From: a virus
Lineage: Duplodnaviria > Caudoviricetes
Length of the DNA stretch: 64,000 nt
Virus record (IMG/VR): IMGVR_UViG_3300016371_000007
Coordinates: 1 to 64,000 of that record
Reading direction: 5' to 3' (one strand)
Part shown: positions 3,745-56,589 of the stretch, piece after piece
How positions within the stretch are numbered: position 1 is the first letter of the stretch
How the letters are laid out: every line of letters starts with the position of its first letter
The notes under the pieces: model-generated
Told to the model about the DNA's origin: nothing
Seen by the model: only the letters and a program-made list of their open reading frames with translations
The model's database searches: none
Translations under genes and position numbers: made by a program

Positions 3745-5126
3745 GTATTACCGTAGACGCCCGCAGCCTCGAGGCCCGGTACGGCAAGCAAGTCAGCGTG
3801 GAACCGGCCACGCCCGAGCAAGACCTTTACTATCCTGGCAGTGGGCAGGCCCCGCCTAAGACCGGCCAGGGTCAGATCCCGCAAGGCAGGCCGGTGCCGG
3901 AAGGAACCGTTGTCTCCCAGATAGTAGGCCGGGGCCAGCCCGCGCCTCAGATCCAGGTAGTGCCGCCACAGAAGGAAGGAGGGCCACCAGCTCCGCAGCT
4001 CCAGGTGGTGCCACCGACCGGCGCTAGCCGCACCACCATCGGCACCTTCGTAGAGAGTAAGACCAACCCGCTCAAGGATCAGAAACCAATAGACGAAAAT
4101 CCGGCGCCGCCCCCAGGGGAATGCTTGCAGGAGCCGCCGCCGAAGCCCAAGAAGAAACTGGATCTGGTCATCGAGGTACTCAACTACATCACTGAGCTGG
4201 GCGGCGAGAAGTCAGAGGATGCTCAAAAATTCTTCGACAGAACTGAACAGACGTTGCATCAGTGGTTTATCCAACCCAACAGGATCCCGTTAGAAGCCCT
4301 CACCAAGCTTCTAAACCGAAAGCCGGGGGTCCAAGTCGAGCTGGCCGAGCAACTGGAACCACATCTTAAACACAACGACGGCGGTTTACAGAGCCTCCCC
4401 AATAGGGGCAAGACCAATGCGATTGTCTGCGCACCGATCCTGGGCCAGCCGACACTCCCCTTCCTCTGGGTCTGCCTTTATCTAGCCAAGAAATATGAAC
4501 TGGGATTCGACATCCAATCCGATACCGTCATACATCGTTCTCGCAACATGCTCGCCCAGCGATTCCTACGGAGCAATGCCACTTGGAGTCTCTGGCTGGA
4601 TAGTGATATCGCTGCCCCAGTGGCCAATCCCGAATGGTTTTCTTGGTTAACCGGCGCTCAGAACTTGCCACAAGAGGCCGGTTCGTACGATGTTCTACAG
4701 CGACTACTTGCCGGAGGCAAAGCGGTCATTGGGGGAGTATACGCTTCGCGGCGGTATCTCGGTCAACTGGTTATCCAGCCCGAGATCCGCCCGCGAAGCC
4801 ATGAAGACAAGCTCTTATGCAATGATATCAGAAAAGGCACTGCCAGGGGACTTGTGGATGTTGATTGGCTGGGCTTCGGCTGTGCTCTTGTTCACCGGGA
4901 TGTGTTCCTGGAGGTCCAGCGACGGTTCCCACAGCTGGCACCACAGGCCGAGAACGCGCCCTGGCGTTTCTTCCAACCCGAAGCCGACGAAGGGGAAGAC
5001 GAAGCCTTTTGTAAGCGAGTGAAAGCTTGCTCGATCCCGATCTGGTTAGACACTCAATTGGTCTGTGGCCATATCGGAAACATGTGCTACCTCCCTGAAC
5101 ACACCCGAGCGATCCATGGCATATGA
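3741..5126 (+). CDS. GT-A (GT2-like) glycosyltransferase with Pro-rich and HTH-like N-terminal extension
   Basis: Motifs HRSRNMLAQRFL, WLDSDI (DxD), IGGVY, WLGFGCALVHRDVF, GEDEAFC and LVCGHIG match the common phage GT2-like glycosyltransferases. Confidence 0.75.
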   Translation: MSITVDARSLEARYGKQVSVEPATPEQDLYYPGSGQAPPKTGQGQIPQGRPVPEGTVVSQIVGRGQPAPQIQVVPPQKEGGPPAPQLQVVPPTGASRTTIGTFVESKTNPLKDQKPIDENPAPPPGECLQEPPPKPKKKLDLVIEVLNYITELGGEKSEDAQKFFDRTEQTLHQWFIQPNRIPLEALTKLLNRKPGVQVELAEQLEPHLKHNDGGLQSLPNRGKTNAIVCAPILGQPTLPFLWVCLYLAKKYELGFDIQSDTVIHRSRNMLAQRFLRSNATWSLWLDSDIAAPVANPEWFSWLTGAQNLPQEAGSYDVLQRLLAGGKAVIGGVYASRRYLGQLVIQPEIRPRSHEDKLLCNDIRKGTARGLVDVDWLGFGCALVHRDVFLEVQRRFPQLAPQAENAPWRFFQPEADEGEDEAFCKRVKACSIPIWLDTQLVCGHIGNMCYLPEHTRAIHGI

Positions 5127-5196
5127 CAGACCTTGGGATCTTTATTCTATTGCTGGTTTGGATGTTCCTGGACCGATGTAACATTTATTTCAAGCG

Positions 5197-6663
5197 ATGA
5201 GGACGGACGTTGTCGTTAAGACTTGGTGGGGTGACCTCTGCTGGCTCAGTTACGCGCTCAAGTTCCTATACAAAAACTGGAAAGAACCTAACTCCAACTT
5301 CATCGTCTTGGCCGACGAGAACTGCAAGTCGGTGCTCAAGACCTGGGGCTTCCCGTCGAGTGTACGTTACTTCTACTTCAAGCCCTGGCCGGACGGGAAC
5401 GGCTTCCAACAATACCTGACGCTCTTGTGCGATAACGTTTCTGACGCTGATCTCTTCGCCATCTGGGACAGTGACATCATGCTCACCGAACCCATGCAGG
5501 CTAGCGATCATATGATCGATGGGAAACCGATTATCTGGTTTGATCCTAATTATACTGCTGGAAAGCAGAAGTGGGGGCCAATCATGCGCCATTGGCTGGG
5601 AGCTACGCCGGAGGCTGACTACATGCAGCGGTTCCCTTTCCTTTATCGGGCGAGCACGTTAGCAAATGTGCGTAGGATGATCACGCATTGGACCGGACAG
5701 GGCTTAGAGGAAAGTCTCTACAGCGATACGCCTTATTCACCAGCCACCTTTGGCACTCATCCCTTCAAGTTCTGTGAACATAATGTGATCGGTTTCTACG
5801 CTTGGTTATTTGAGTCCGATCAATACGCCTTTTGCAATGTCCATGAACATACTTGGCACCAACGGTATCGCCATTACCATAGTTGGTCCCAGTGGAGCGC
5901 GGAGCGGATGAAGGAGCTGGACAATTTGTATCTTACGGGCATGGATAACCCGACCCTGGAAGATCAAATTATGCAGACCGCTCAAGGCTGGTGGGTCCTG
6001 AGGCGCGACACCCACATCAGCAGATGGGTCGAACAAACTCAGCGCCTGGATCATGATCAGACCGTCCTCCAGCAGCTTTGGCAGTACATCCGTCCAGGGT
6101 CGACAGTGATTGACGCAGGAGCCGCCATTGGCGACCACACTATCTTTTACTTAGGTGCTGTGGGGCCAACAGGTACTGTCTATGCTTTCGAGCCTCACCC
6201 GATCCAATACGCATGCCTAACCCGGAACTGTCCCAAGGCTCGTTGTTACCCACAGGCCCTGGGCGACACGTCCGGCACGGTACATCTTTTCCATGAGCCG
6301 GATATAGTAGCCGGGTCGCGGCTGATAGATCCCCAGCTGCAATGGCCGATGAGCAGCTGTGAACGGGTGACTCTGGACAGTGTGGTAGAAGACAAAGGCA
6401 ATGTGTCGCTACTGAAGATTGACGTGGAAGGCTGTGAGCCGGAGGTCTTGCGCGGGGCACGAGAGATCATTAAAGAGAGCCAGCCCGTGATCTGGTTTGA
6501 GCAGAACCCAGAAGCCTTGCAGCGCCAAGGTCATTCAATTGATGAGGTCCGGGATCTGATCGCTGAACTAGGCTATCACGTAGTCCGGTTCTACCCAGAC
6601 GGCTCAAGCTGGAACGGGAGTCCCGATCAAAAATCCCAGTGCGACATCCTTTGTTCGCCATGA
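5197..6663 (+). CDS. glycosyltransferase-like (DUF6492-like) domain fused to an FkbM-family SAM methyltransferase
   Basis: N-half has WDSDIML (DxD); C-half has VIDAGAAIGDHT, VYAFEP, LLKIDVEGCEPEVLRGA and PVIWFE, which are FkbM signatures. Confidence 0.8.
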   Translation: MRTDVVVKTWWGDLCWLSYALKFLYKNWKEPNSNFIVLADENCKSVLKTWGFPSSVRYFYFKPWPDGNGFQQYLTLLCDNVSDADLFAIWDSDIMLTEPMQASDHMIDGKPIIWFDPNYTAGKQKWGPIMRHWLGATPEADYMQRFPFLYRASTLANVRRMITHWTGQGLEESLYSDTPYSPATFGTHPFKFCEHNVIGFYAWLFESDQYAFCNVHEHTWHQRYRHYHSWSQWSAERMKELDNLYLTGMDNPTLEDQIMQTAQGWWVLRRDTHISRWVEQTQRLDHDQTVLQQLWQYIRPGSTVIDAGAAIGDHTIFYLGAVGPTGTVYAFEPHPIQYACLTRNCPKARCYPQALGDTSGTVHLFHEPDIVAGSRLIDPQLQWPMSSCERVTLDSVVEDKGNVSLLKIDVEGCEPEVLRGAREIIKESQPVIWFEQNPEALQRQGHSIDEVRDLIAELGYHVVRFYPDGSSWNGSPDQKSQCDILCSP

Positions 6664-11371: not shown

Positions 11372-13228
11372 ATGGGAGCACAGAACCTACAGATCATTAT
11401 GGATGGCCAGTGGTCTGGCGGTGTCGATAGCTTTCTCTATCCAACTGACATAGTCCAAGGCTCCTACGCCTGGGGTGTCAATGTCGTTAACCGTGGCGGC
11501 GTAGTTCAAACCCGGCCCGGAAAACGCCGAGTCAAAAGCTTCTGTGGCCACCGTGGCCAGGGCGTCTATTGGGTTAGAACCCTGGATGACCGCAACTATC
11601 TGATGGTGGCCATCGATGGACAGGTCTATACCGCACCTTTCCCGTTTAAGAACTGGACGCACCTCAGTGGAGTCAACTTCCGGCCTGATGCCGAGCGGAT
11701 CTATTTCTGTAATACCGAACAGGCGATCACCTACAACACCGACAACACCATCGCTCTGTTGCCCTACCCAAAGAACATAGTCTTTATGCAGGACGGCACC
11801 TCCACGCCCTGCTATTGGGACCTGGGCTCTGGAATACAGCCAGCCAGTACTGATTTCAGTTCCGGTATCGTCAATGACAACTATGTGACTGGCACGCCAA
11901 GAGCCCCGCTGATGATTGGCACGGCCATGATCTGGAAGGATAATCGGCTTTGGATCGCCGTGGACAATATAGTCTATGCCAGCGACCTGCTTTATGCCGC
12001 TTCCTTCCAGGAGAATACCTACCTAGCCGAGCAGACTGGCTTCCGCTTTCCCCGAACTGTCATCAACTTCTGGCCCATGCCGGTCATGGGCCTCATGGTC
12101 CTGACTGAGTCCAGCATGCACGCCCTGCAAAGCTATATCCAGGACCGGACTACTTGGCAGCAGCAGACGAGCCCCCCCTTCCAGTCCGATATCAACCTGG
12201 AGATCGGGCTGATCGCACCCTGGGGCATCGTCAATCTGCATGGAATGCCTTGGCTCTTAACCGCAAGAGGAATCATCTCGTTTGACCGGGCAATGACTAC
12301 CAATCTGACCACGGTCATCCTCACCGCAGACGGCGAGATGATGCGCTCTAAGACCCTGCTGGCACCCAACGTTAGCCGCGCCTGCCTGGGAGTTTGGGAG
12401 AACGTTCTCATGTGCGGCATGCCGAATACCTGCACCAAGAACAGGCACACCTGGATCATGGACGCAGGGATCGCGGAAAAATTGAACAACACCCAAGGCA
12501 TGTGCTGGACCGGCGTCTGGACCGGCACGTTCCCGATCCAATTTGCCAGCCCAATTGTTAACGGGACCCAATACAACTATGAGCTTTCTTACTCTGGCGG
12601 CTTTCTGGCCGTTAACCAGGGGGATAGCCCCTCGCCCCAGCCTGAGACTAATATGCCGTCCCAGGCGTACATCCATCTCTGGGAGAATTTCATACCCAAC
12701 CAGATCGATGCTTGTGAGACCTCCATTAATTGCTCCGTCGAGACCAAGATCTTCACACTGACGACAGACGACTACTACAGGTTTGTCTTCGCTGAGTTCA
12801 TGTTAATCAACCTGAAGGGGACGGTGCCGGTACAGGTTTATGTGACTGGGATCGCTGGAAATTATCAGCCCCTCTTCTCAACCACGCTGCGGGCCGATGT
12901 CGGCCCCTGGGGCAACCCTAGCGGCACTTCCCTCCTTTACTATGTGAGCGCTGGACGCACTACCCAGTTCGAGAACTATCGGCGGCAGGTTAGGCACATG
13001 AGGACCCAGGAGTTTATCGTCCACGAAAGTGCGGACGAAGCAGCCTGCCTGGAGATTGGACGGCAGGACGGTATTGATAAGGGCTTTCAGCTGATGATTC
13101 AATGGCAGGGCCGCTTGGGGCTGCGGGCGCTGAAGTTCTTCTATGATCGGCAATTGCAATCGCCCCAGGGCCTCTGCCCCGTCGATGAGAGCCAGACCCC
13201 ACATATCGTTTTGGAGGCCACAGCATGA
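11372..13228 (+). CDS. probable tail nozzle / tubular protein B (P22 gp10 / T7 gp12-like)
   Basis: About 618 aa from ATG 11372; N-terminal W.GGVD...NVVNRGGVVQTRPG motif and beta-propeller-like composition; follows the adaptor. Confidence 0.6.
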   Translation: MGAQNLQIIMDGQWSGGVDSFLYPTDIVQGSYAWGVNVVNRGGVVQTRPGKRRVKSFCGHRGQGVYWVRTLDDRNYLMVAIDGQVYTAPFPFKNWTHLSGVNFRPDAERIYFCNTEQAITYNTDNTIALLPYPKNIVFMQDGTSTPCYWDLGSGIQPASTDFSSGIVNDNYVTGTPRAPLMIGTAMIWKDNRLWIAVDNIVYASDLLYAASFQENTYLAEQTGFRFPRTVINFWPMPVMGLMVLTESSMHALQSYIQDRTTWQQQTSPPFQSDINLEIGLIAPWGIVNLHGMPWLLTARGIISFDRAMTTNLTTVILTADGEMMRSKTLLAPNVSRACLGVWENVLMCGMPNTCTKNRHTWIMDAGIAEKLNNTQGMCWTGVWTGTFPIQFASPIVNGTQYNYELSYSGGFLAVNQGDSPSPQPETNMPSQAYIHLWENFIPNQIDACETSINCSVETKIFTLTTDDYYRFVFAEFMLINLKGTVPVQVYVTGIAGNYQPLFSTTLRADVGPWGNPSGTSLLYYVSAGRTTQFENYRRQVRHMRTQEFIVHESADEAACLEIGRQDGIDKGFQLMIQWQGRLGLRALKFFYDRQLQSPQGLCPVDESQTPHIVLEATA

Positions 13229-13434
13229 GACCAAGCCAGCACCAGGGAATCTTTGACCCAACCACTGACACCCTGACTGTCGTGGGCCTGATCCCGCAGA
13301 CCGGCATGCCGCCGATCTATTTCAGCCGGAGCCGGGAAGTTCTCTATGATGCGCTCCAGAATGAGAAAACCTTCATCTTCAATAAATTCGGGCCACAGCG
13401 CTTAGATCTCTGCCGCCCTAACATGCACTGGTAA
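13225..13434 (+). CDS. small hypothetical protein
   Basis: 69 aa; ATGA-coupled to the nozzle gene. Confidence 0.5.
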   Translation: MRPSQHQGIFDPTTDTLTVVGLIPQTGMPPIYFSRSREVLYDALQNEKTFIFNKFGPQRLDLCRPNMHW

Positions 13435-13437
13435 TCT

Positions 13438-14727
13438 ATGGCCGCCGCGACTACTCAGCTACCGCTCTCGATCTCCATCGCCCCGTTCCCCGAAGGTTTC
13501 CATGGGGACATGGACGAAACATTTCAACAAGCGTGTTTGCTGATGGAGGCCTATATCGAGGGCAGCTTCCTCACCGGCTTGGTACTGCCTCCGGGATCAA
13601 CCCTTCCTACCAATGACCAGGGTCCCATAGCTATGGGCGGCGTCTGGTACTTCTGGGATCCCGGCAGCCAGAGCTACCAGCCCCAGACCGTGCCGGTCAA
13701 GATGGCGAAGAACTACGCCAAGAATCCCAGCTATCAGGTTCAGCAAACTATAGGTCCCTTTACCCTGGGTGTCGGAGTTACCAACACCTTCGACATGACG
13801 GTCGCCAGGGCGACCCAGGCAAACCTAGTTCAGGTTAAACCTGTCGCCGGGCCACCCTCTACTCCTGACAACGATACCATCTGGCAGGCTGTCCAATCCA
13901 CGGTGCTGACCGCATACGCGACTTTGGCGGCAGGCGATATCTTTGGGCACGAGCACATATTCGAGGGGATCGATATCCTCCCACTGCAAGGCCAGACCTT
14001 GAGCTTGGGCCTCTCGGTCTATGCCAGTGCGTCCGGCACTTACTCTGTCTATCTGATTAATAGCGGGGGCGATCAATCCTACGTACAAAACTTCACTGTG
14101 CCTACGCCGAACGTATGGCAACGGGTAAAGATCCAGGGGATCCCGGCCTTCCCTACCACCGGCACTTGGCAGTGGGGAGAGGGGCAGACCGGTCTCCGAG
14201 TCGGCGTTGCCCTGGCTGTCGGTACCCAGTGGCAGACGACTAAACCCGGCACTTGGCAACCGGCCCAGGCTTTCGGCACCAGCAGCAATATCAATATGCT
14301 GGCAGTCGGCGCTCAGTTCATATCTATCACCGGCATCAAGTTAGAAGTTGGCGCGGCCTGCACTCCCATTACGGTCAATTCTTTTGCTGCCGATTACCAG
14401 GACTGCATCCGCTACTACTGGTCCGGGTTCGTCTATCAGACCCTGAACTCAGTGGGCGCAGCATTGAACGCCACGGCCTACATTGCTAATACCGCACTCT
14501 TTGAATTCGCTTTCCCGATTCGCCTGTGCCGGACACCGACCATTACCCCTTACGCTTGGCAAGGATTCACCTCTGGTCAGATAACCAATATTAGCACCGG
14601 CACCAATTACGCCGTCACTGGTTTCGGCGGTTCACAAAAAGGTGTCAACTGTAATCCCACTGGGCTAACTGCCGCCAAGGGCGATGTCCTCACCTGTATT
14701 ATCGTTGCCGATGCCCGCCTTAAGTAA
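13438..14727 (+). CDS. tail-associated protein with carbohydrate-binding-like tip domain
   Basis: NP.Y/F.V.Q ... KLEVG..CTP ... DCIRYY domain homologous to the C-termini of 42437-45169 and 45226-46290. Confidence 0.6.
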   Translation: MAAATTQLPLSISIAPFPEGFHGDMDETFQQACLLMEAYIEGSFLTGLVLPPGSTLPTNDQGPIAMGGVWYFWDPGSQSYQPQTVPVKMAKNYAKNPSYQVQQTIGPFTLGVGVTNTFDMTVARATQANLVQVKPVAGPPSTPDNDTIWQAVQSTVLTAYATLAAGDIFGHEHIFEGIDILPLQGQTLSLGLSVYASASGTYSVYLINSGGDQSYVQNFTVPTPNVWQRVKIQGIPAFPTTGTWQWGEGQTGLRVGVALAVGTQWQTTKPGTWQPAQAFGTSSNINMLAVGAQFISITGIKLEVGAACTPITVNSFAADYQDCIRYYWSGFVYQTLNSVGAALNATAYIANTALFEFAFPIRLCRTPTITPYAWQGFTSGQITNISTGTNYAVTGFGGSQKGVNCNPTGLTAAKGDVLTCIIVADARLK

Positions 14728-15121
14728 ACATCCCGATAAGTCTGCCATCTCAGTCATCTGCTGTGAGAGTGAGAAGGACCTACGTCGCTACCCTATCGAT
14801 GAGCTGGCCCAGGACATCATTGGCGAGGATGTACCTCGCACCTTCCCGGTGTACCTCTTCTTCTACAACGGCACGCTTCGCGGCTGGGCTAATGTGAGGC
14901 TCCAGCACATCGTCTATCCCTGTATCCATCCCGATAAGATCCCACCACGGGAGTTCGTGAAGCTGACTAGGTCATTGGTGACTGAATTCAAACGGCACAC
15001 CGGAGACCCGATCTTTATGTTGTGCGATTACGCTAGGCGGCTTGGTCCCAAACATATGCGCCGACTCCGGCTAAAGCCAGCCGAGGAGCAGGCCTATATC
15101 TACACCGAGGAGGAAGAATGA
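14711..15121 (+). CDS. small protein preceding the ejection genes; possible GNAT-like fold
   Basis: About 136 aa; occupies the position where podoviruses often carry an acetyltransferase-like gene; motif support is weak. Confidence 0.35.
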   Translation: MPALSKHPDKSAISVICCESEKDLRRYPIDELAQDIIGEDVPRTFPVYLFFYNGTLRGWANVRLQHIVYPCIHPDKIPPREFVKLTRSLVTEFKRHTGDPIFMLCDYARRLGPKHMRRLRLKPAEEQAYIYTEEEE

Positions 15122-16731
15122 GATTTCCCCCCGAAGAGCATGATTGGTTAGATAATAACTTCTTCTTTGGCGGGGGTGGCGGCGGTGGTTCCACTCAGTT
15201 CCACGCCCAGGGTTCACCTCCTAGCTTCCAGTATCTGTCGCCATCAGCACTCAATCAGATGGCCGTAGGCGCTGATGCACAGAGCTATGCCATGAGCGAT
15301 CAGGCTTTCGCCAACCAATACCCCGCGCTCCAGCAGGCCTACAACCAGTACCAATCCAACTTGGGCAAGCAGGTAGGCCTTGTCGGCCAGGGCCAAGCCG
15401 GGCAAAGCCAGCTCATGGGTGGCCTCGCCAACACCATCGCTGGGCGCATGCAGACACCCACCACACAGAACATCCAGAACATGCAGAATGCCGCCGCTAC
15501 GATGGGGTCGGCGGTTAATCCGATCTACGGGATGGGTGCGCAACAAGCATCCTATGCCCAGCCCATCACTAATCTCGGCATGAGCCAAGCCGGACTCGCT
15601 CAGCCATTGGTTGGCATGGGGATGAATGTCGCCGGACAGATGGGCGGGATTGGGAACCAGATCAATCAGCAGGCCGGAAACCTGTATGGCGCGGCCCAGA
15701 TCCCCTACCAGCTGGGGCAGCAACTCCTTCAAGAACCCATCGACCCCCAAACCCAACAGCAGATGATGCACGCGGGCCTGGGCCAAGCTGCCGGGGCATT
15801 AGGCGCTGCATCCCTGGGGCAGGGCATGGCGGGCCAGTCCGCTGCCGCGAGACAACTTGGCCTCAATACCCTCCAATATGGCCAAGCGATGAGAGGCGAG
15901 GCCATGGGTGACATCGGCCAGTACTCATCCATGCTGGGTGCAGCGGGCCAGATGCAAGGCTTAGGGGCTGGCATCATCGGTCAAGGCGGCCAGATCGGAG
16001 GTCAACTGATGGGCCTGGGCGGCCAGCAACTAGCCCAGGGAGCACAGACCATGGGACTTGGCAGCCAGCAGCTGGGTCAAGCAGCCCAGACTTACGGCCT
16101 GGGAGCCAATGTAGCCGGGGCAGCCGGAGGCATGTATGGACAGGCACAGCAAGCCCAGGAAACCTACGGCATGGACACGGCCCAGATGGCTTCTATCTAC
16201 GGCGGCATGCAGAACCAGCAGGCCACCAATCTTTTGGGCAACATCGCCAATGCTGGGCAGATGTTCGCTAAAAGGCCCTATGGCCTGGGCGGCACCAACA
16301 TGGCCCAGGTCGATCTCTCGCAAGCCGGTGCCTACAACAGTTTTCAACAAGCCAATTACGCCACGATGAATGGGATTGCATTTAATCAAGCCCAATTGAA
16401 TGCACAACAGCAGCAGTTGCAGGCCCAGCAAAACGCTTCCATGACCGGCGCTCTACTCTCTACCGGCACAACCGCTGCCACTACCGCCGCCATGGTCTCG
16501 GCCATGGCCTGCTGGGTCGCACGCGCTGTCTATGGCACCAGGGATAATCGCTGGAAGACTTTCAGGCATTGGCTCCTGCACAAGGCACCTAGTTCCGTCC
16601 GGTCAGCATACTTGCGTCACGGCCAGTCCGTCGCTTCGATGGTGAGGCGCAGCTCTCTGCTGCGCTTCTGCCTGCGTCTAGCTATGGACTCAATCATTAA
16701 GAGGACTGTCTATGTACAATGCGGAGCGTGA
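15118..16731 (+). CDS. DNA-ejection/pilot-like protein with C-terminal CWVAR..YG domain
   Basis: Leader followed by G7; long G/Q/A/M amphipathic repeats; C-terminal CWVARAVYG...WKTFRHWL...AP...Y..HG domain resembling CFI-box-CTERM. Confidence 0.6.
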   Translation: MRFPPEEHDWLDNNFFFGGGGGGGSTQFHAQGSPPSFQYLSPSALNQMAVGADAQSYAMSDQAFANQYPALQQAYNQYQSNLGKQVGLVGQGQAGQSQLMGGLANTIAGRMQTPTTQNIQNMQNAAATMGSAVNPIYGMGAQQASYAQPITNLGMSQAGLAQPLVGMGMNVAGQMGGIGNQINQQAGNLYGAAQIPYQLGQQLLQEPIDPQTQQQMMHAGLGQAAGALGAASLGQGMAGQSAAARQLGLNTLQYGQAMRGEAMGDIGQYSSMLGAAGQMQGLGAGIIGQGGQIGGQLMGLGGQQLAQGAQTMGLGSQQLGQAAQTYGLGANVAGAAGGMYGQAQQAQETYGMDTAQMASIYGGMQNQQATNLLGNIANAGQMFAKRPYGLGGTNMAQVDLSQAGAYNSFQQANYATMNGIAFNQAQLNAQQQQLQAQQNASMTGALLSTGTTAATTAAMVSAMACWVARAVYGTRDNRWKTFRHWLLHKAPSSVRSAYLRHGQSVASMVRRSSLLRFCLRLAMDSIIKRTVYVQCGA

Positions 16732-17986
16732 GCTAGTCCGAGCAGCGGCAGCCGAGTCACTAAACAAGCTCACCCGAGCCGAGCTATTACGGCACTTCTT
16801 AATCTCCCGAGTCGGGGATATCACGGGGATGGACACCATCGGCGTCCCGATCTTTACTGCGATCAGGGCATTGTCCAAGACCATTGCGATCCACGCCGGG
16901 AAAGGCATGAATCCCAGACTGAGCCGAGCGGGAGCGATTGCGGAGGCTATCGAATTCGAGGCCGCTGAACATCCACATGGCAAAGCCGTCGTTGCCCAGG
17001 CGATCCAGATTCCAGCAGAAGAGCGCCTGGACATCATAGACTGTTTTCCAGCCCGCTCCAGCGTAGTGAGTGATTTCACGCCGTTGGCCTGGGAAGAAGC
17101 CACCAACATTCAGAATGGCTCAGTCAAGCTCATCCCTTCGGATCTCATCTGGATGGTCAACCGAATCGAGCAGCAGCCCTTGCTCTACTTGCAGACTGGA
17201 TCTAATGGCCTAGCCACCGGAGGCACCCTGGAAGACGCTATCCTCTCCGGCCTGTACGAGATTCTGGAACGCGATGCTTGGACCCTGCACCAGTTCTTGG
17301 TCGATAACTATGGCTACATTTCCCAGCGCATCCCGCTGGTATCACTGCCGGAACCAATCGAGGGGCTGGTGCGCAAGATCGAGGCTACGGGGTCGAGGCT
17401 GCATCTATTTGACTGCACCAATGACTACCGAATCCCGGTTATCAACGCGACGATCCTGGATCTGAGCGGCAATTGTGCCGGGATGTTTGCTGGTTATGGC
17501 TGCCATCTTAATGCCGAAGTCGCCGCTATCCGGGCGATCACCGAGGCAATCCAATCCCGAGCAGGCTATATCTCCGGGGCTAGGGATGACCTATTCCGGC
17601 GGCAGTTCTTGCTTATGAAACGCCTGGATCACGGGAAGCTGGATCAGATGTTCAGTGAGTTACCCGTAGGAGGGCTGTTATCTGAATACCGGACTGTACG
17701 CTTCGATACCATCAAAGCTGAGTTGCGCTATCTCTTACGCCTGATCAAAGCCGCCGGGGTCTCAGAGGTCTATGTGAGAGAGATCGGGGCCTACGTGGAT
17801 AACATCTATGTGGTCCGGGTATTCAGCCCTCAATGCGAGCCGTTCAGGTTCGACTTCTGGCAGCCGAGCTTGCGCTGCCTCTCCTATGCTAAGCGCAAGA
17901 TGGCCGAGCTGGCCAAGCAAGGTAAGGAGAAAGTCACTGAGCCGGAGGAAGAAGACGAGGAAGGAGAAGAATGGAAAAAGTCTTAG
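16712..17986 (+). CDS. ycaO: YcaO-family ATP-dependent peptide-backbone-activating enzyme (TfuA-associated, thioamide-forming type)
   Basis: ISRVGDITGMDTIGVP, HAGKG, AIAEAIE, SNGLATGGTLEDAILSGLYEILERDA, GYGCHL, AITEAIQSRAGYISGARDDL; no C-terminal PxP. Confidence 0.93.
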   Translation: MYNAERELVRAAAAESLNKLTRAELLRHFLISRVGDITGMDTIGVPIFTAIRALSKTIAIHAGKGMNPRLSRAGAIAEAIEFEAAEHPHGKAVVAQAIQIPAEERLDIIDCFPARSSVVSDFTPLAWEEATNIQNGSVKLIPSDLIWMVNRIEQQPLLYLQTGSNGLATGGTLEDAILSGLYEILERDAWTLHQFLVDNYGYISQRIPLVSLPEPIEGLVRKIEATGSRLHLFDCTNDYRIPVINATILDLSGNCAGMFAGYGCHLNAEVAAIRAITEAIQSRAGYISGARDDLFRRQFLLMKRLDHGKLDQMFSELPVGGLLSEYRTVRFDTIKAELRYLLRLIKAAGVSEVYVREIGAYVDNIYVVRVFSPQCEPFRFDFWQPSLRCLSYAKRKMAELAKQGKEKVTEPEEEDEEGEEWKKS

Positions 17987-19266
17987 TTTACCTGGGGCCA
18001 AGCCTTCCGATTGGGATAGCCAAAGAAATTCTCCCCGATGCGGTTTATCGCCCACCGGCCCGACAGGCTGACATCGTCAGTGATCTGGCCAGGGTCAAGC
18101 CCACGCACCTCATCCTGATCGACGGCACCTTCAGGGAGAATCTCTCGGTCTGGCATAAGGAGCTAGTGTATGCCCTCCAGTTCCCTGGAGTCCAGGCCGT
18201 CTACGGGGCTGCCAGCATAGGCGCACTCCGGGCCGCCGAGCTGGATTACCTGGGCATGATCGGCCTGGGTAAGATCTACGAATGGTACCGGGATGGAGTG
18301 ACCGAGGACGATGCCGAGGTGGCTGTTAGCTATGCCGAGCACAAAGGCCAGTATCATCTTAACAGTGTGCCGCTAGCCGATATCCGGGCTGGAGTCGAGG
18401 AGCGCGGCGACGATGCCTATTGGTTCCTGGATCGGATGCGTAGCGTGCCATATGCCGAACGCACTCACGATCTATGCGAGCGAGAATGGCAAGTAGAAGC
18501 GCTCCAGCCGAACTATCCTTGTCGGCCCCAGAAACAATTGGACGCCGAGCTGGCTCTCCGGGAGTTCCGGGATCATAAGCCGGAGCCGGTCCATAAGCCA
18601 CAACCCGATGACCTCTCAATGACTTTCGGCGCTCTCTATGAACGGGACCGGCGCATCAATATCAAGGGCGTCCCTATCCCGCAGCAACACCTGGATGCCT
18701 TCGTCCTATTACATAACCCGGAATGGGAAAGGATAACCTGGGATGCTAGCAACCAGGAGCTGGCATTAATGCTCTGCAATTTATTGCACGTTATGGTCAG
18801 CCTGGAAGAGATCGGACGGGAAAGCGCCCGGTTCCAGCAGCGGGCCGGGATCACCACCCAGGAAGAGTTCCACAGCTTCCTAGAGAACAACGGCTGGAAC
18901 ACCCACGAGTTCGACCGGCTGATGATCCGCAATGCCAGGATCCGCAAGCTCCAGCATCACCTAACGGTTTCCAAAGTCTTCAAGCGTAACACCCAGTCGG
19001 TCCTGGATTACTTGCGCACCCACCAGGGATTTGATTTCTGGGCCATCCAGGCGGCCCAGCAAGAGGCGCGACTGGATAATGATGAATGGCTCTCCATCGA
19101 CCTGGAGACTCCCGTGCTCCAGCGGCTCAAGGAGCACCTGGAGAAAGAAGGGATGGAATTCAATATGACCCCTGAAGAGTACCTCCTGGAAACCGGCTTT
19201 AGCAATTTGAATGAGCTGTCCGTAGCTCTCCAACGCACGGCAGCTGGAAAGGAACACAATGTCTAG
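17971..19266 (+). CDS. tfuA: TfuA-like protein (YcaO partner) with C-terminal helical extension
   Basis: VYLGPSL, YRPPARQADI, LIDGTF...SVWHKEL, GAASIGALRAAEL..LGMIGLGKIYEWYRDG..EDDAEVAV, LNSVPLADIR are TfuA core signatures; overlaps ycaO. Confidence 0.92.
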   Translation: MEKVLVYLGPSLPIGIAKEILPDAVYRPPARQADIVSDLARVKPTHLILIDGTFRENLSVWHKELVYALQFPGVQAVYGAASIGALRAAELDYLGMIGLGKIYEWYRDGVTEDDAEVAVSYAEHKGQYHLNSVPLADIRAGVEERGDDAYWFLDRMRSVPYAERTHDLCEREWQVEALQPNYPCRPQKQLDAELALREFRDHKPEPVHKPQPDDLSMTFGALYERDRRINIKGVPIPQQHLDAFVLLHNPEWERITWDASNQELALMLCNLLHVMVSLEEIGRESARFQQRAGITTQEEFHSFLENNGWNTHEFDRLMIRNARIRKLQHHLTVSKVFKRNTQSVLDYLRTHQGFDFWAIQAAQQEARLDNDEWLSIDLETPVLQRLKEHLEKEGMEFNMTPEEYLLETGFSNLNELSVALQRTAAGKEHNV

Positions 19267-21748
19267 CGGTGTAGGTGGCAGTCAACTCACTGGGAATTCC
19301 GGTCAACTCACTACCATCCCTAACCCTGGCGCTGGCAGTACTATTGGCTCGAACGGCCAAGTTTTCTTGTCTGATGGGTCGCCTTTTCTCTTTAATGGAC
19401 AACAAGTATTTGCAGGCGCGAATGGGACATTCACGACGACGGCTCCTAGCAGCACATCCGCTGCGACGACTCAAAGTCAGGGGATGCAGCCGAACTTCCA
19501 GGTAAGTAACGCCTACGTTGGTAATCCACTCTATTCCCCCTCGCAGACTGGTGCCGCGTTAATGGGCCAGCAGATGATGGTTAATCCCAATCCATCACAG
19601 CAACCGATCTCTAGCCAAAGCGGCATCTATTCTGGCCCGCAAACCCCGACGCTCTCGAGCGGGGTCCCGGCTATACCACAAGGGCCATGGAGCCATGTGC
19701 CCGGACTGATAGGAGGCATGGCTCCCCAAGGCCAAGTAGGTCCTGCCTCGCTTGCCGCCAATCCTCAAAACGTCTGGAATGTTCCTAAGCCTAGCACCAC
19801 CACCATCACGCCGACCGCACCTTATGGCGGCGTCTCCAGTGCCACTTCTTCTCCCAGCCCCTTTGCTACTCCACCAGCAGCGCCATCCATCAATTACTCG
19901 TCCACAGGACTACCGCCGCCAACAGCTCCGACACCAAATATGCAGCCGCAATCACGGGCATTGGGTCTCACGCCATTGAATGCAGCCAGTAATTATGTCA
20001 CTAACGCGACCACCCCAGGAACCAGCGCCGGATTCCTTGCCTTAGGAGCGGCGACCAAACACATGGCCGCCGGTGGCCGGGTGAGACGAGATCAGCAAAA
20101 CCAACCGCCCCCGCCCATACAGGTTGGACCGCAGCCAGGGCCGATCAATATGCCAGCTGCCGGACCACCGCCGAATATCCCGGTGGGAACGCCGATTAAC
20201 CCTGCCGCTTTTGCACCTGGAGGGCAGTACGGAGCACCGCTAGCACCGGGCATGGCCCCTCCCCCTGTCGCACCTCCGGTTAATAATCCCAACTTCCAGA
20301 TGCCGCCTGGGTTCGCGCCAGGACAAAACTTACTGGGAGCGCTTCCTGGAGGTAATGTGCCACCGCCGAACCCCATGGGACCGGGACCCCAATTCATGGG
20401 TCAGCTGCCAGGAGGGATGATAGGACCCCAAGCCACTCCAGGAATCAAGCTGCGGCAATCCGGCGGCCCGATCCAGAAGGACGATGACGAGACTTACTTC
20501 GGAGGTCAACCCTCGCCAGCAGCTAGCCCAACCCCGACTCCGAAAACTAGCCCAACTCCCAAACCGACTCCGGTCCCGCCTGCGAAATGGCAAACCACCA
20601 TCGCGGGCCAGCCGGTAGAAGATCAGCCATACCAGCAGAAGGCAGCCGGTGGCAAGGTTGACACTGACACAGTGCCTGCCATGCTCACCCCCGGCGAATA
20701 TGTAATCAATAAAGATGCAGCTGAGAACATCGGTAAAGAGAAGCTGGATGAACTTAACCAGAAAGGTAAGTCCAAGAAGTTAGGTGATGGGCTGTACCCT
20801 CAACACCTACAAGCTGGCGGGGACGTTCAAGATTTAGACAACTTGTCTACCAACTATGCGATGAATCAGTTCAACGCCGCACAGCAGACCATGCTGCAAG
20901 CTATGCTGCGTCAGAACCCGCAAACCCAATACAGCCAAAATGCACCTTCGAGTTCCAGTAATCCGTTATTTCAGCGGTTCCTTACGCTGAAGCAGCAATT
21001 CGTCGCTAATCGTCTAGGCACTCAGTACGGTCCAGGGCAACAAGCGGCAGCTCAGAAAAAAGCTCAATCTTCTGTCCCTCAGACAATTGGAGCACAGACG
21101 ACAGCCACCCAGCGTCCATCGACTCCACAGCAAGGGACTCCACAGCAAGGTTTCCCAGGCGTTGGCGGCAATATGTATGGCGGCGGCGGCGGCGGGATGC
21201 CGCCCGGAACGCTTCCCGGCCAGGGAACTTACCTGCCAGCGGCCCAGCAAACACCAAACTATCCCGGCAATATGACTCAATGGCTGGCCCAGTTTGGCCA
21301 TACTCCACAGGGACAAACATGGCTGGCCAACAATCAGAATAATCCCGCTGCACAGGCTTATATAAGATCGCTCTCAAGTGCTACTGGGCCGGGGAGCCCT
21401 TTGTACGGGAACCCGCAAGGCATGCAGGTAGGACCAGCTAATCCAGGGATCGCTAGCCCAACTGCAACGGCGCAGACCGCTGGTGATTATGCGGCAGGAG
21501 CTGCGAATCCGGCAAGCGGAACAATGAATTTAGGCCAAGCACCAGCGGCTCCAAACTTTAATGTAGCAGCCACCATTGCAGGCGCAGGCCAGAATGTCGC
21601 CCAAGCCTGGAGCAATTACGGGAAATCGGTCGGCAGCTGGAATCCGATCCCAGCCGGAAGCTGGGCAAACGCAATGTATTACGAAAACCCGGAGATAGCT
21701 CATTACTATCAGTATATGCAGCCCTTCCAGGAGTATCAGATCGTTTAA
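19259..21748 (+). CDS. low-complexity internal virion / ejection protein
   Basis: 829 aa, P/G/Q/A-rich; contains AGGKV.TDTVPAMLTPGEYVINKDAAENIG, a motif common in virion proteins; four xxGGx[VI] repeats. Confidence 0.6.
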   Translation: MSSGVGGSQLTGNSGQLTTIPNPGAGSTIGSNGQVFLSDGSPFLFNGQQVFAGANGTFTTTAPSSTSAATTQSQGMQPNFQVSNAYVGNPLYSPSQTGAALMGQQMMVNPNPSQQPISSQSGIYSGPQTPTLSSGVPAIPQGPWSHVPGLIGGMAPQGQVGPASLAANPQNVWNVPKPSTTTITPTAPYGGVSSATSSPSPFATPPAAPSINYSSTGLPPPTAPTPNMQPQSRALGLTPLNAASNYVTNATTPGTSAGFLALGAATKHMAAGGRVRRDQQNQPPPPIQVGPQPGPINMPAAGPPPNIPVGTPINPAAFAPGGQYGAPLAPGMAPPPVAPPVNNPNFQMPPGFAPGQNLLGALPGGNVPPPNPMGPGPQFMGQLPGGMIGPQATPGIKLRQSGGPIQKDDDETYFGGQPSPAASPTPTPKTSPTPKPTPVPPAKWQTTIAGQPVEDQPYQQKAAGGKVDTDTVPAMLTPGEYVINKDAAENIGKEKLDELNQKGKSKKLGDGLYPQHLQAGGDVQDLDNLSTNYAMNQFNAAQQTMLQAMLRQNPQTQYSQNAPSSSSNPLFQRFLTLKQQFVANRLGTQYGPGQQAAAQKKAQSSVPQTIGAQTTATQRPSTPQQGTPQQGFPGVGGNMYGGGGGGMPPGTLPGQGTYLPAAQQTPNYPGNMTQWLAQFGHTPQGQTWLANNQNNPAAQAYIRSLSSATGPGSPLYGNPQGMQVGPANPGIASPTATAQTAGDYAAGAANPASGTMNLGQAPAAPNFNVAATIAGAGQNVAQAWSNYGKSVGSWNPIPAGSWANAMYYENPEIAHYYQYMQPFQEYQIV

Positions 21749-21762
21749 GAGAAAGGTAATTT

Positions 21763-24399
21763 ATGGCAGGCGGTGTAGGTGATACTAGCAGTGTACCTGA
21801 GCATGGCCCGATCCAGGCGCAATACTGGCCGCAGACACATGTTACCCAGCTTGGCCCGATCAACAGACTGGAGCCGGTTAACTGGATGGATAGCTTGGGC
21901 CTAGCGGCCCGCGAGGCTGGCAAGCAGCTGATGACGAGCATGGCAAATCCCGCCGTCAGAGAGGCGGCTCGTGCGGAGGCGATGCGTGCTCAAGCCGAGC
22001 AAAAACTCGCGCAATACTACCGGGATAATCCCATGATGCTTCGCCGGTACGGTTCAATGGGAAGCGGCGGCCTTACCACCCTAGCGAAAGCTCAATCCGG
22101 TGTCCTTGGTTACGTGGGTGACACGGATATCATGCCGACTCAGACGAATGACGCCCCGGCAGCCCCGAGTCAGACTGGAGGAGACGGAAGCGCAGAGGCC
22201 GAAAAGACCACTAAGGCATTGAAACCGGGACCAAGGCCCGGAACGGAAGAGACCCCAGCAGATGGCGACCAGAGTGACCAGAACAAGGATACCAGCAAGC
22301 CATTTGGAAGCACTACGAATTTTGGCGGCGTTTCCAATGTGCCAGCTGCACCTCAGACCATGGATGATCTGGACAGCCGGATCCGGGTGGCTGTGGCGGA
22401 TGTGATGAACAATCCCACGGCCTATCTCAATCCGGGTGGGGCGGCTCAGTATCCGAGCCAGCCTTGGTATGGAAGCCAGGGAGGACAGGTACCACAGAGA
22501 CTGGCTGATGGCGGCCAAGTGCAGCAAGCACCACAGCAGGACCAAGATAATCAGAACTTTCAGCCATCACCTTTTGTGTCCCCCGCACTCCAACAAGCAG
22601 CCGGTGGCGATCCGCAAAAAGAGCTGGCACTCCTCCGGCAATGGCAAGGCACCCAGCAGGCTAATTTGCACCCCGTCATTCCGGCTAGCGCTGTTAAAGC
22701 GGCACTGAAAGAAGGAGTACACACCGGAGTCACGGATGTGGTTTACAATCAGGGCGCTGGCCCAGGCGCACAGCCTAGTTACACCGTATACACCAAGAAC
22801 CCACAAGGACAGGGGACTACTGCGCAGACTCTGCCGCTCACCCAGGTAGCGAAATTCTTCCCGCATCTGGCTTCGGGCAGCAATATGAGTCTGGCCATGA
22901 GCGGGGCAGATATGCAACAAGGGACGCCACCGGGCATGGGAACTCCTCCGGCACCCGTTGCGCCGACAGGAGGTGCCGGAGCTGCACCAGGAGCTACAGC
23001 CGGGTTTAACGCGGGCGCTCCTTCTGCCCCAGGTGCTTTAACAGGCGGGATTCAAGGAGCTGGCCAGAATCCGAATGACGTGGTTAATCAACAGATTCAC
23101 CAGATGGTGGCCGACAGGATCCTGCATCCCGAAAATCTCCTGGTTGATAACACACCAGCCGGGAACCCGAATAATGCGACCACTAACACCTCTAATGTAG
23201 TTAAAACCAACCCAAGCAATTTCCTCGACAGCTGGCGATCTAAGGATTCAACCACTGATCCCAATCCGCCGCCGATAATGAATCCGCAAGGGATTGCAGA
23301 CGTGCAGCGGCAGAATGCAGCTCACCAGAAAGAAGGCTGGGATAAGGCCCAGGACGCAAATGACGGAAGTGGGGTCAATAAGATTGCAGCGGTACAATAT
23401 GACGGAGCTGGAGGGCAACATTTCTGGTTCCACGATACCCGTTCTAACATCAGCAGCGTGCCATTCCTGGTCTATAGCGATACCGGGTATAGCCAGATCA
23501 GGATGCCGCTCGATGGCCAGGGCCACACTATGGAGGTGATGCTGCCGGACTGGCAGATCAAAGAGAATCTTTCAAAGATGGGGATCAATCCTGAGGGCTG
23601 GTCACACAATCAGATGGTGGCCGCAGTCCAACAAGAGATCTATAACAACACCCACGGCGATTTCCCTCTGGCTACCCGGAATAAACTCGAGACCGAGTTA
23701 AATCAAACCCTCCAATCTCAGCGAGGTATTGATGCCATCACCGAACTGAACAAGCATAACCAGCCTGGAGATCCAGCCGGAAGTGGCTGGAGTATCATCC
23801 AGCGGGCTCGAGCGTACATCGATCAGAACTCGAATCTGATGGCTGGCTGGCCCCAAGCCCAACAATGGGTGACAGCCATCCAGCACGCCCTGGGCAATGC
23901 CCCTGCGCCTGCGGCATTGGTGGCGCTCCAGGATGCAATGACCCAGTTAACTGATGAAAGTCGGTTGGGTCCTGAGGAAAAGGAGGGACTACCTCCTCTG
24001 AGCTTCGACAATTACCTATTGCCTCGCCTAATCCAGTATAACCATACGATGGCGGCACGTCTTAGTCGGCAGATCTCAAGCTCTCTCAATAACAACGAAA
24101 AGATCGATGCTTCCTATCTGAAGGTAGGCAGAGGATTACGTGAGAATGGACGTGTCCCCGACACGGGACTTAGCATGGAAGCTCTCGATAAAATAACCCG
24201 GTCCAAACCGGGGACAGCTATGCCGAGCCCAACTGCGAGCCCCACTCCAGAACCAGTCTTGCAGGCGCAGCCTAACGCTACCCCGCTGGATACCCGCAAC
24301 ATGACCCAGGAGGAGATGAATAAGGCGCTTAGGAAACAGCCTTTGGGCAGCAAGTTCATCGACGGTCAAGGTCTAAAGATCCTCAGAAAATACCCGTAA
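21763..24399 (+). CDS. internal virion / ejection protein
   Basis: 878 aa, low complexity, contains LADGGQV; TAATG coupling to the giant gene. Confidence 0.6.
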   Translation: MAGGVGDTSSVPEHGPIQAQYWPQTHVTQLGPINRLEPVNWMDSLGLAAREAGKQLMTSMANPAVREAARAEAMRAQAEQKLAQYYRDNPMMLRRYGSMGSGGLTTLAKAQSGVLGYVGDTDIMPTQTNDAPAAPSQTGGDGSAEAEKTTKALKPGPRPGTEETPADGDQSDQNKDTSKPFGSTTNFGGVSNVPAAPQTMDDLDSRIRVAVADVMNNPTAYLNPGGAAQYPSQPWYGSQGGQVPQRLADGGQVQQAPQQDQDNQNFQPSPFVSPALQQAAGGDPQKELALLRQWQGTQQANLHPVIPASAVKAALKEGVHTGVTDVVYNQGAGPGAQPSYTVYTKNPQGQGTTAQTLPLTQVAKFFPHLASGSNMSLAMSGADMQQGTPPGMGTPPAPVAPTGGAGAAPGATAGFNAGAPSAPGALTGGIQGAGQNPNDVVNQQIHQMVADRILHPENLLVDNTPAGNPNNATTNTSNVVKTNPSNFLDSWRSKDSTTDPNPPPIMNPQGIADVQRQNAAHQKEGWDKAQDANDGSGVNKIAAVQYDGAGGQHFWFHDTRSNISSVPFLVYSDTGYSQIRMPLDGQGHTMEVMLPDWQIKENLSKMGINPEGWSHNQMVAAVQQEIYNNTHGDFPLATRNKLETELNQTLQSQRGIDAITELNKHNQPGDPAGSGWSIIQRARAYIDQNSNLMAGWPQAQQWVTAIQHALGNAPAPAALVALQDAMTQLTDESRLGPEEKEGLPPLSFDNYLLPRLIQYNHTMAARLSRQISSSLNNNEKIDASYLKVGRGLRENGRVPDTGLSMEALDKITRSKPGTAMPSPTASPTPEPVLQAQPNATPLDTRNMTQEEMNKALRKQPLGSKFIDGQGLKILRKYP

Positions 24400-46292: not shown

Positions 46293-46568
46293 ATGTGCTT
46301 ATCCCCCTACAACGCCCCAGGAGCCATCCTCTGCGTAGACCGCTATCATAAGAGTCCCAAGGCACCAGGAACGCCAATCCGGCCCATGGCGCTGCCCCCT
46401 AGCCCCATTAGCTACGGCCCACCTACCCAGGCAGGCCGGTTCGTCTGCGGAGGTCCAAGCTCGACAGGTCCGTTCCTCTTCGGTTATATGGAAGGTATCA
46501 CCTGGAGTGCCCAGGTCTTCGGACGCATCTCCTCCGGTGGCACCGGGCAGAATCTGGGATTATCGTGA
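46293..46568 (+). CDS. small Pro/Gly-rich hypothetical protein
   Basis: 91 aa from ATG 46293; GTGA overlap with the next gene. Confidence 0.5.
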   Translation: MCLSPYNAPGAILCVDRYHKSPKAPGTPIRPMALPPSPISYGPPTQAGRFVCGGPSSTGPFLFGYMEGITWSAQVFGRISSGGTGQNLGLS

Positions 46569-56312: not shown

Positions 56313-56512
56313 TGCAAACCCTACTCAACCGAATGACTGAATACGAATACGAAATAATGAGGGACGATATCCTGGGCAGGGATTACACCCGAGACCACAA
56401 GGACTGGTACATGTACCAGTGGCTCGCAGGGCGGCCCACTACCTTTTACCAGTGCACTGAGCGCTGGTATCGCAGCCCAAAGGGTCGGATCGAGTTCTAT
56501 TGGCCCATCTAA
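56312..56512 (+). CDS. small hypothetical protein
   Basis: TAATG-coupled, 66 aa. Confidence 0.5.
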   Translation: MQTLLNRMTEYEYEIMRDDILGRDYTRDHKDWYMYQWLAGRPTTFYQCTERWYRSPKGRIEFYWPI

Positions 56513-56589
56513 AGACTTTGGGCCTGCCCGGAATTCCACCTCCGAGCAGGCCCAACCGACAGATAAACGCAATCAACAGTTCGAAACAC

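Follow-up and report, generated by a model that had tools for sequence, protein, structure and literature searches.

Backbone thioamides are among the rarest protein modifications and are known from McrA, ribosomal protein uL16, and a few families of peptides that are made on ribosomes and modified after translation (RiPPs). To our knowledge, all characterised TfuA-linked YcaO enzymes make thioamides. Here, we analysed a YcaO-TfuA gene pair in a 64,000-nucleotide stretch of phage DNA (the window), which forms part of the 75,872-bp IMG/VR virus record IMGVR_UViG_3300016371_000007 (CheckV completeness 89%). The pair directly follows the gene of a low-complexity protein, referred to below as the upstream protein. 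The YcaO and the long-form TfuA are genuine, their catalytic residues are intact, and the pair belongs to one phage clade in which it is deeply conserved. That the pair represents a phage thioamidation system is well supported by enzyme identity, integrity, conservation, and association with a sulfur carrier; from the same sequences we infer an O-to-S chemistry, a substrate, and an effect on an ejection protein. If true, a thioamidation system would be described for a virus for the first time, as would a thioamidated viral structural protein, and a conserved, widespread viral YcaO-TfuA pair would be a fourth biological context for backbone thioamides.

The described system nearest to the phage pair is the YcaO-TfuA system that modifies McrA, whose subfamily models (TIGR03266 and NF033432) and structures (MJ1094, 6pe3, and TfuA, 6xp8) scored highest for both phage proteins. 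The two genes are adjacent in both systems. The substrate of the McrA system is a large protein and not a short peptide, and its sulfur route through TfuA and ThiS is supported in phages by the ThiS genes of relatives. In contrast, the McrA system belongs to methanogens rather than to a virus, the phage TfuA is twice as long, and the phage substrate cannot be McrA; both phage proteins also scored far under the McrA equivalog cut-offs (170.7 vs 365 and 125.7 vs 235 bits).

The closest cellular sequences (28-39% identity) came from bacterial RiPP-like clusters with a YcaO and a long TfuA, found in Azospirillum, Acidimicrobiia, Actinomycetota, and Acidobacteriota and, as thioamitide-type clusters, in Streptosporangiales. 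These pairs interleave with the viral clades in the tree, and many share the long TfuA and an adjacent ThiS. They adjoin LanM-like proteins (DUF4135 plus LanC), MacB/FtsX transporters, and small open reading frames (ORFs); 19 precursor-like ORFs were present in 15 cellular loci, with a leader of about 65-75 residues ending in [VIL]AGG and an A/G/S/T/V-rich core of 12-45 residues. The composition of these cores is like that of a segment of the phage upstream protein. However, the phage pair is not accompanied by short leader-core precursors, LanM-like enzymes, or exporters, all of which the bacterial clusters possess, and the core-like segment of the phages is embedded in a structural-module protein of 300-900 aa. 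In one metagenome-assembled genome of Ilumatobacteraceae, a YcaO and long-TfuA pair was located between GyrB-like and GyrA-like genes (L235:5879-13533), and this locus may encode a RiPP that targets gyrase, together with resistant-gyrase genes for immunity.

Cellular YcaOs modify the housekeeping proteins McrA and uL16, and the E. coli YcaO, which acts on uL16, is a precedent for modifying a folded housekeeping protein through recognition of its tertiary structure (Rice et al. 2026, PMC13063428). The E. coli enzyme has no TfuA partner, and the phage YcaO matches its model (NF040716) marginally. The surroundings of the phage pair are comparable to podovirus ejection operons (T7 gp13-gp16; P22 gp14, gp7, gp20, and gp16) and to gp25-gp22 of Puniceispirillum phage HMO-2011. 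The shared gene order comprises a small protein, a protein in the pilot position, and large low-complexity proteins that end the structural module. HMO-2011 gp25, which is 63.9% identical to a YcaO-lacking relative, carries the same C-terminal domain as the upstream protein (the CW domain, Table 1); HMO-2011 lacks the pair, unlike the phage of the window. We know of no ejection operon with protein-modifying enzymes of this kind.

The YcaO of the window matched PF02624 end to end (E 3.1e-56, 191.5 bits vs a cut-off of 25.7; profile positions 1-324 of 325). Its top NCBIfam model was TIGR03266, the McrA-glycine thioamidation YcaO (E 4.5e-50, 170.7 bits), and its top PDB match was MJ1094, 6pe3 (E 3.5e-30), whereas the model of the E. 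coli uL16-type YcaO, NF040716, scored only 35.8 bits against a 700-bit cut-off. Judged by these scores, the enzyme appears closest to the McrA-type subfamily and yet is no member of the McrA equivalog. Residues E78, E81, E183, E186, R187, R274, and E278 were invariant among 16 YcaOs with 34-73% identity to that of the window. They correspond to the positions of the ExxE, ExxER, and RxxxE motifs, and by the offset of the HMMER block the ExxER and RxxxE residues fall on 199/202/203 and 286/290 of the E. coli YcaO. These Glu and Arg positions are reported to act as ATP/Mg2+ ligands (Dunbar et al. 2014). The original prediction of a full-length YcaO with intact ATP-binding motifs was thus borne out, and the alignment that it had proposed as a check for degenerate catalytic residues showed every one of these positions kept. 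M1 was nearly invariant among orthologues, in agreement with the called start. The C-terminus is acidic (EPEEEDEEGEEWKKS) and does not carry the Pro-rich motif of azoline-forming enzymes, and no E1/ThiF-like cyclodehydratase partner was found in the whole record. An adjacent tfuA, no E1-like or Ocin-ThiF-like partner, and no Pro-rich C-terminus together are the features of a TfuA-dependent YcaO.

TfuA matched PF07812 (E 5e-29, 101 bits vs a cut-off of 30), NF033432 (E 1.6e-36, 125.7 bits), and, by sequence, PDB 6xp8 (E 3.4e-23). In its AlphaFold2 model (predicted local distance difference test score, pLDDT, 84.8), residues ~1-217 aligned with 6xp8 over its full length of 217 residues (Foldseek E 3.1e-13, TMt 0.79). 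The S82-x-GALRA motif and W61, K63, E64, R164, Q187, K188, and D191 were invariant in 18 TfuAs of 25-63% identity, and the conserved N-termini of the orthologues agreed with the called start. TfuA is reported to hydrolyse ThiS-COSH via a Ser-Lys pair (quoted in PMC13185837). Candidates for this pair in the phage protein are the invariant S82 and the invariant lysines K63 and K188. The original prediction had described a TfuA core: the protein is indeed a genuine TfuA with the core motif, but at 431 aa it is about twice the canonical length and not a bare core.

The additional length is due to a helical C-terminal extension of ~215 aa that follows the catalytic module, and the long form is common to cellular RiPP-type clusters (phage TfuA HMM positions 5-416). 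Folded alone, the extension gave a pLDDT of 82.6. The top structural matches of residues ~236-338 were the chaperone modules of SurA, trigger factor, PrsA, PEB4, and PpiD (Z 6.9-4.3), and the top 13 matches were almost all of the SurA/trigger-factor-type family. Foldseek placed the same family first with non-significant values (E 0.33 or worse), Pfam SurA_N_3 matched only the window's protein (1 of 18 members) with E 0.16, and an Atlas feature search with the extension returned TfuA clusters only. These predictions are a weak lead, consistent with an extension that possibly binds extended polypeptide; such a function would fit the reported role of TfuA in raising the substrate affinity of YcaO. 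In L009:11284-12610, TfuA is split into a catalytic part of 181 aa and an extension of 274 aa, either by a frameshift or as a genuine two-gene form, suggesting that the extension is a separable module.

The absence of ThiS and ThiF noted originally for the window was found to extend to the whole 75,872-bp record, and ThiS was not found in five complete relatives. An 88-aa gene ending in Ala-Gly-Gly was present between ycaO and tfuA in L126, L153, and L106, and its product belongs to the ThiS family (PF02597, E 2.8e-8, 34.6 bits vs a cut-off of 22.5). A ThiS neighbour was likewise observed beside the Azospirillum pair and other cellular pairs. The occurrence of ThiS inside the cassette fits the known TfuA mechanism, in which sulfide is obtained from ThiS-COSH, and thioamidation is its natural interpretation. 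The phage of the window, having no ThiS, would have to use that of its host. The window also encodes a PAPS-reductase-domain protein (PF01507, E 2.3e-11; 58155-58940), which occurs in 1 of 10 related genomes. This gene was rejected as a partner in sulfur supply, being present in one of five relatives of the 75-kb type and in none of five of the 40-kb type.

No relatives of the YcaO were detected by tblastn in 50,697 GenBank phage records, and no description of a phage YcaO-TfuA was found in the literature searched, in line with the original statement that no phage system of this kind had been described. A collection of 5.8 billion proteins contained 257 homologue clusters. The best 120 of the 257 were all 56-73% identical and 393-434 aa long, many of them on contigs of 74-79 kb, and clustering at 50% reduced this close group to one or two representatives. 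The next representatives (35-42% identity) were again phage-borne and had the same gene order, and an alignment-based scan of IMG/VR yielded 39 viral loci down to 26% identity. A second large group comprised contigs of ~40-47 kb with TfuAs of ~330 aa. Complete genomes of 74-78 kb (G001, G002, and G004) and of 41-42 kb (G006, G008, and G010) carried the pair, and two of these had terminal repeats. No prophage copy of the pair was found in 185,579 species genomes. In a quick YcaO tree, the viral sequences formed two clades with cellular sequences between them. However, two independent acquisitions were rejected as an explanation, because a single viral clade was not rejected by the approximately unbiased (AU) test (p 0.313) and because the CW-domain tree explained the presence of YcaO by one change. 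Both results fit one old acquisition of the pair followed by vertical descent. The clade is large, uncultured, and absent from isolate collections, and its distant link to HMO-2011-type phages is the shared C-terminal domain.

The pair lies within four successive plus-strand ORFs (15118-16731, 16712-17986, 17971-19266, and 19259-21748). The upstream gene and ycaO overlap by 20 nt, ycaO and tfuA by 16 nt, and tfuA and the following ORF by 8 nt, exactly as the original prediction had given them. The GC level was flat across the region (0.568 vs 0.576 and 0.567). No sigma-70-like site was found on the plus strand from 11944 to 23147, and promoter- and terminator-like matches in the region were not more frequent than in shuffled sequence. 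The flat GC and the lack of plus-strand sigma-70-like sites agree with the earlier claim of neither a separate promoter nor an insertion scar. A location of the pair inside the late/structural operon, without signs of recent insertion, is supported. The features of this region are listed in Table 1.

Table 1. Features of the operon containing the YcaO-TfuA pair (window coordinates; IVP, internal virion protein).
Feature	Coordinates	Strand	Position or basis
Conserved small protein, 145 aa	14684..15121	+	Podovirus IVP-A position (T7 gp13-like slot)
Gln/Gly/Ala/Met-rich low-complexity protein, 537 aa (upstream protein)	15118..16731	+	IVP-B/pilot position, directly upstream of ycaO
Ala/Thr/Gly/Ser-rich hydrophobic stretch, residues ~441-464 of the upstream protein	16438..16509	+	Candidate core-like substrate segment
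'CW[VIL]ARxx[FY]G....RW..FR' C-terminal domain (CW domain), ~66-73 aa	16510..16728	+	Alignment of upstream-protein C-termini
YcaO, 424 aa, ATP-dependent backbone-amide activating enzyme	16712..17986	+	Pfam, NCBIfam, and PDB matches
TfuA catalytic module, residues ~1-217	17971..18621	+	Pfam, NCBIfam, PDB, and AlphaFold2 model
Helical C-terminal TfuA extension, ~215 aa	18622..19266	+	Predicted structure
Pro/Gln/Gly-rich protein, 829 aa	19259..21748	+	IVP position, directly after tfuA
878-aa protein	21763..24399	+	IVP-C-like position; ORF list
Giant protein, 2931 aa	24399..33194	+	IVP-D-like position, closes the module

The gene order around the pair was well conserved. In the ~75-kb clade, YcaO was preceded in fixed order by proteins of ~620 aa, ~600 aa, ~430 aa (fibre-like), and ~140 aa and a Gln/Gly/Ala-rich protein of ~500 aa, and TfuA was followed by two or three large low-complexity proteins and then the giant protein. 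Of the 74 loci retrieved, with some contigs included twice, 64 had a CW-domain protein that ended directly upstream of ycaO, at a distance of ~25 nt or less, or within 486 nt where a homing endonuclease was inserted. Counting also the loci in which the preceding protein has no CW domain, the pair stood directly after the same phage gene in 71/74 loci over very deep divergence. In four further lineages (L019, L020, L021, and L033/34/37), the Gln/Asn-rich protein at this position is without the CW domain, its last residues being exactly those of the Ala/Gly-rich stretch. The inserted gene encodes an HNH/His-Me homing endonuclease (183 aa) and in several close relatives is located exactly between the CW-domain gene and ycaO, overlapping both (L005:9487-10038, L006, L007, and L008); in L014 the corresponding ORF is 179 aa. 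In a relative of 39% identity (L010:11237-12698), a thymidylate synthase gene and two small ORFs lie between ycaO and tfuA, indicating that the two genes can be separated.

Orthologues of the upstream protein (55-61% identity) hold the equivalent position in the ~75-kb clade. Conservation that extends to the 40-kb group is limited to the C-terminus of the protein, namely, the Ala/Gly-rich hydrophobic stretch and the ~66-aa domain, in which C, W, A, R, W, R, Y, G, and A are invariant. The 20 residues preceding the CW motif were 43% Ala and 81% small residues in YcaO-bearing phages, compared with 16% and 57% in YcaO-lacking phages; the precursor cores beside homologous cellular pairs were 28% Ala and 75% small residues. 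In phages without the CW domain (L019, L020, L021, and L033), the Ala/Gly-rich stretch forms the very C-terminus, as in a RiPP precursor. The association between YcaO and the Ala-rich stretch gave p ~1e-16 (Mann-Whitney U test), yet it was rejected as evidence of co-evolution because it reduces to one independent phylogenetic contrast: all YcaO-bearing phages form one clade, so that the link was established just once in evolution and may be a coincidence. A structure predicted for YcaO together with the last 95 aa of the upstream protein scored 0.00 with an uncertain partner fold, which speaks neither for nor against binding. Because of the gene order (substrate gene, ycaO, tfuA) and the composition, we regard the Ala/Gly/Ser/Thr-rich stretch at residues ~441-464 as the best candidate substrate, although this specific assignment, made by analogy, is tentative and somewhat more likely to be wrong than right.

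Three other features of the flanking proteins were considered as substrate signals and rejected. The upstream protein of the window begins with a 17-residue N-terminal extension (MRFPPEEHDWLDNNFFF, window 15118-15170) before a poly-Gly run, and this 'leader-FFF-Gly7' N-terminus could be taken for a RiPP-like leader. It is not conserved; the orthologues begin MGGGG and start at 'MGGGGGGGGSTQF', which leaves two possibilities, an uncertain start codon or a lineage-specific extension. The CW domain is common in YcaO-lacking phages and missing from several YcaO-bearing ones, and GG-x-V motifs also occur in the N-terminal regions of the CW proteins of YcaO-lacking phages. The original proposal that the phage thioamidates its own Gly-rich virion proteins is partly supported: thioamidation gains from the ThiS genes of relatives, and the Gly-rich virion proteins are putative targets, GG-x-V being shared with relatives that have no YcaO.

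On the favoured reading, which is modelled on the characterised TfuA-dependent systems, YcaO and TfuA would be expressed together with the late structural genes. YcaO would bind a peptide segment and O-phosphorylate one backbone amide at the expense of ATP, TfuA would hydrolyse thiocarboxylated ThiS, supplied here by the host and in some relatives by the phage, and deliver sulfide, and departure of the phosphate would convert C=O to C=S. The substrate would be a phage late protein, with the stretch at ~441-464 of the 15118-16731 product as the prime candidate, and the helical arm of TfuA might hold the disordered substrate. Rigidity, protease resistance, and membrane insertion are speculative suggestions for what the modification would do to the ejection protein. 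We consider the chances roughly even that the pair acts as a backbone thioamide synthase on a phage late protein. A broader proposal, that the whole podovirus-like clade matures its pilot-position protein by RiPP-type chemistry, is possible but falls short of even chances; backbone thioamides would then be placed in an Ala/Gly-rich, probably membrane-inserting segment by YcaO and a chaperone-armed TfuA fed with host or phage ThiS-thiocarboxylate. If true, phages use RiPP-type enzymes in their virion or ejection programme. The enzymes would be known ones in a new biological setting, and the substrate class is probably new; a defined enzyme pair and a defined candidate substrate make the proposal testable in E. 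coli.

Several observations weigh against this reading. The scores of both enzymes are under the equivalog cut-offs (170.7 vs 365 bits for YcaO with TIGR03266; 125.7 vs 235.2 bits for TfuA with NF033432). The flanking genes are regarded as putative ejection genes from gene order and composition, without an HMM match. The composition link described above may be due to shared ancestry or coincidence. In L030, L041, and L045, the two genes form a cassette by themselves, and the DNA methyltransferase, helicase, and exonuclease genes around them have the opposite orientation; in the complete genome G010 the CW protein is ~16 kb from the pair; the position among replication genes in the L030/L041 lineage implies that membership in the operon is not required. 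A degenerate DNA-pattern scan detected the CW motif on at least 119 viral contigs. Of the 73 unique instances for which 1.5 kb or more of downstream sequence was available, YcaO followed the motif in 16 (22%) and was absent from the other 57, in which the CW protein is directly followed by two or three proteins and the giant one. The cultured Puniceispirillum phage HMO-2011 also has no pair, its CW-domain protein gp25 being followed by gp24, gp23, and gp22. Two observations that the original prediction had counted against itself were thus made: homologous phages lack the pair, and one sub-lineage carries it on the opposite strand among DNA-metabolism genes. Because relatives lack the pair and one lineage keeps it among replication genes, it is an accessory, trans-acting module and no obligatory part of the operon, and it is dispensable for this virion architecture (~78% of the sampled CW-motif contigs are without it).

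An accessory, trans-acting pair could also be directed at the host. It might thioamidate a host protein for takeover, counter-defence, or translation control, and the late-operon place would then reflect timing or an enzyme ejected as cargo. The replication-gene context in the L030/L041 lineage and the related virions built without the pair suit this explanation, as do the housekeeping substrates McrA and uL16 of cellular YcaOs (PMC13063428) and the frequent occurrence of internal or ejected proteins at this podovirus slot (PMC4819975). However, one and the same phage gene immediately precedes the pair in 71/74 loci; the phage YcaO is only weakly like the uL16 type (35.8 vs 700 bits), which has no TfuA, and the hosts are probably diverse, which fits a phage-encoded substrate better. 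We consider host modification unlikely. Alternatively, the pair might act on no structural protein but mature a small phage-encoded peptide, for example a bacteriocin or a signalling peptide carrying thioamides. This would suit its nearest cellular homologues, which share the long TfuA form with the phages and are found in RiPP-like clusters together with leader-core precursors, ABC transporters, and LanM-like enzymes. Yet no small ORF is present in or beside the cassette of the window, where the junctions overlap, or in the two-gene cassette of L041, and no protease, exporter, or LanM-like gene is nearby. Compared by BLAST with the phage ORFs, the cellular precursors matched the ThiS-like ORF alone, and no homologue of a precursor was detected. 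A peptide product is quite improbable.

The chemistry itself might also be different or missing, with the pair catalysing another ATP-dependent backbone reaction (azoline, amidine, or other) or serving as a non-catalytic structural or assembly factor. Both scores under the equivalog cut-offs, the unexplained TfuA extension, and the unmapped lysine of the reported Ser-Lys pair leave room for this. It is nevertheless very improbable, since no catalytic Glu or Arg residue varies over the range of 26-73% identity, the core motif of TfuA is likewise unchanged, relatives carry a ThiS gene inside the cassette, and no cyclodehydratase partner occurs in the genome; the characterised TfuA-linked YcaOs, as noted above, all make thioamides. 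Thioamidation of a phage late protein is the explanation we favour.

In the podovirus order, which the arrangement in the ~75-kb clade mirrors, tubular tail genes are followed by IVP-A, -B, -C, and -D, and genes at the IVP slot often encode internal or ejected proteins (Hardies 2016, PMC4819975). Pfam and PHROG searches gave no match for the 145-, 537-, 829-, and 878-aa flanking proteins and detected no homology of window proteins to T7 or P22 ejection proteins. The 145-aa family comprised 32 members by jackhmmer, from YcaO-bearing loci plus three YcaO-lacking loci, and always preceded the Gln/Gly-rich protein. Its position, with the gene order as in Hardies 2016 (PMC4819975), suggests an IVP-A-like role; an assignment as an acetyltransferase-like IVP-A was rejected, since no profile of an acetyltransferase or other family matched. 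The 829-aa protein contains a 'DTVPAMLTPGEYV' motif (residue ~475), which occurs as 'DTVPAMLTPGEYV[IL]', usually after GG-x-V. In relatives the motif is found again in the protein that follows TfuA and, in L002 (16858) and L005 (17435), at the N-terminus of the giant protein. Weak orthologues of the 878-aa protein (30-33% identity) were present in L002 and L005. In the giant protein, the C-terminal DUF7178 (E 1.5e-10) was the only family assigned, and this last gene is kept in relatives with and without YcaO.

Elsewhere in the window, a glycosyltransferase-like gene and an FkbM-type methyltransferase fusion (3741-6663) lie between head genes in the scaffold and capsid positions. The phage also encodes a Ku70/Ku80 beta-barrel protein (PF02735, E 9e-48; 56500-57399). 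The tail-fibre cluster ends with an autotransporter beta-domain protein (PF03797, E 3e-34; 46565-47677), and the presence of such a protein in a phage implies a Gram-negative host.

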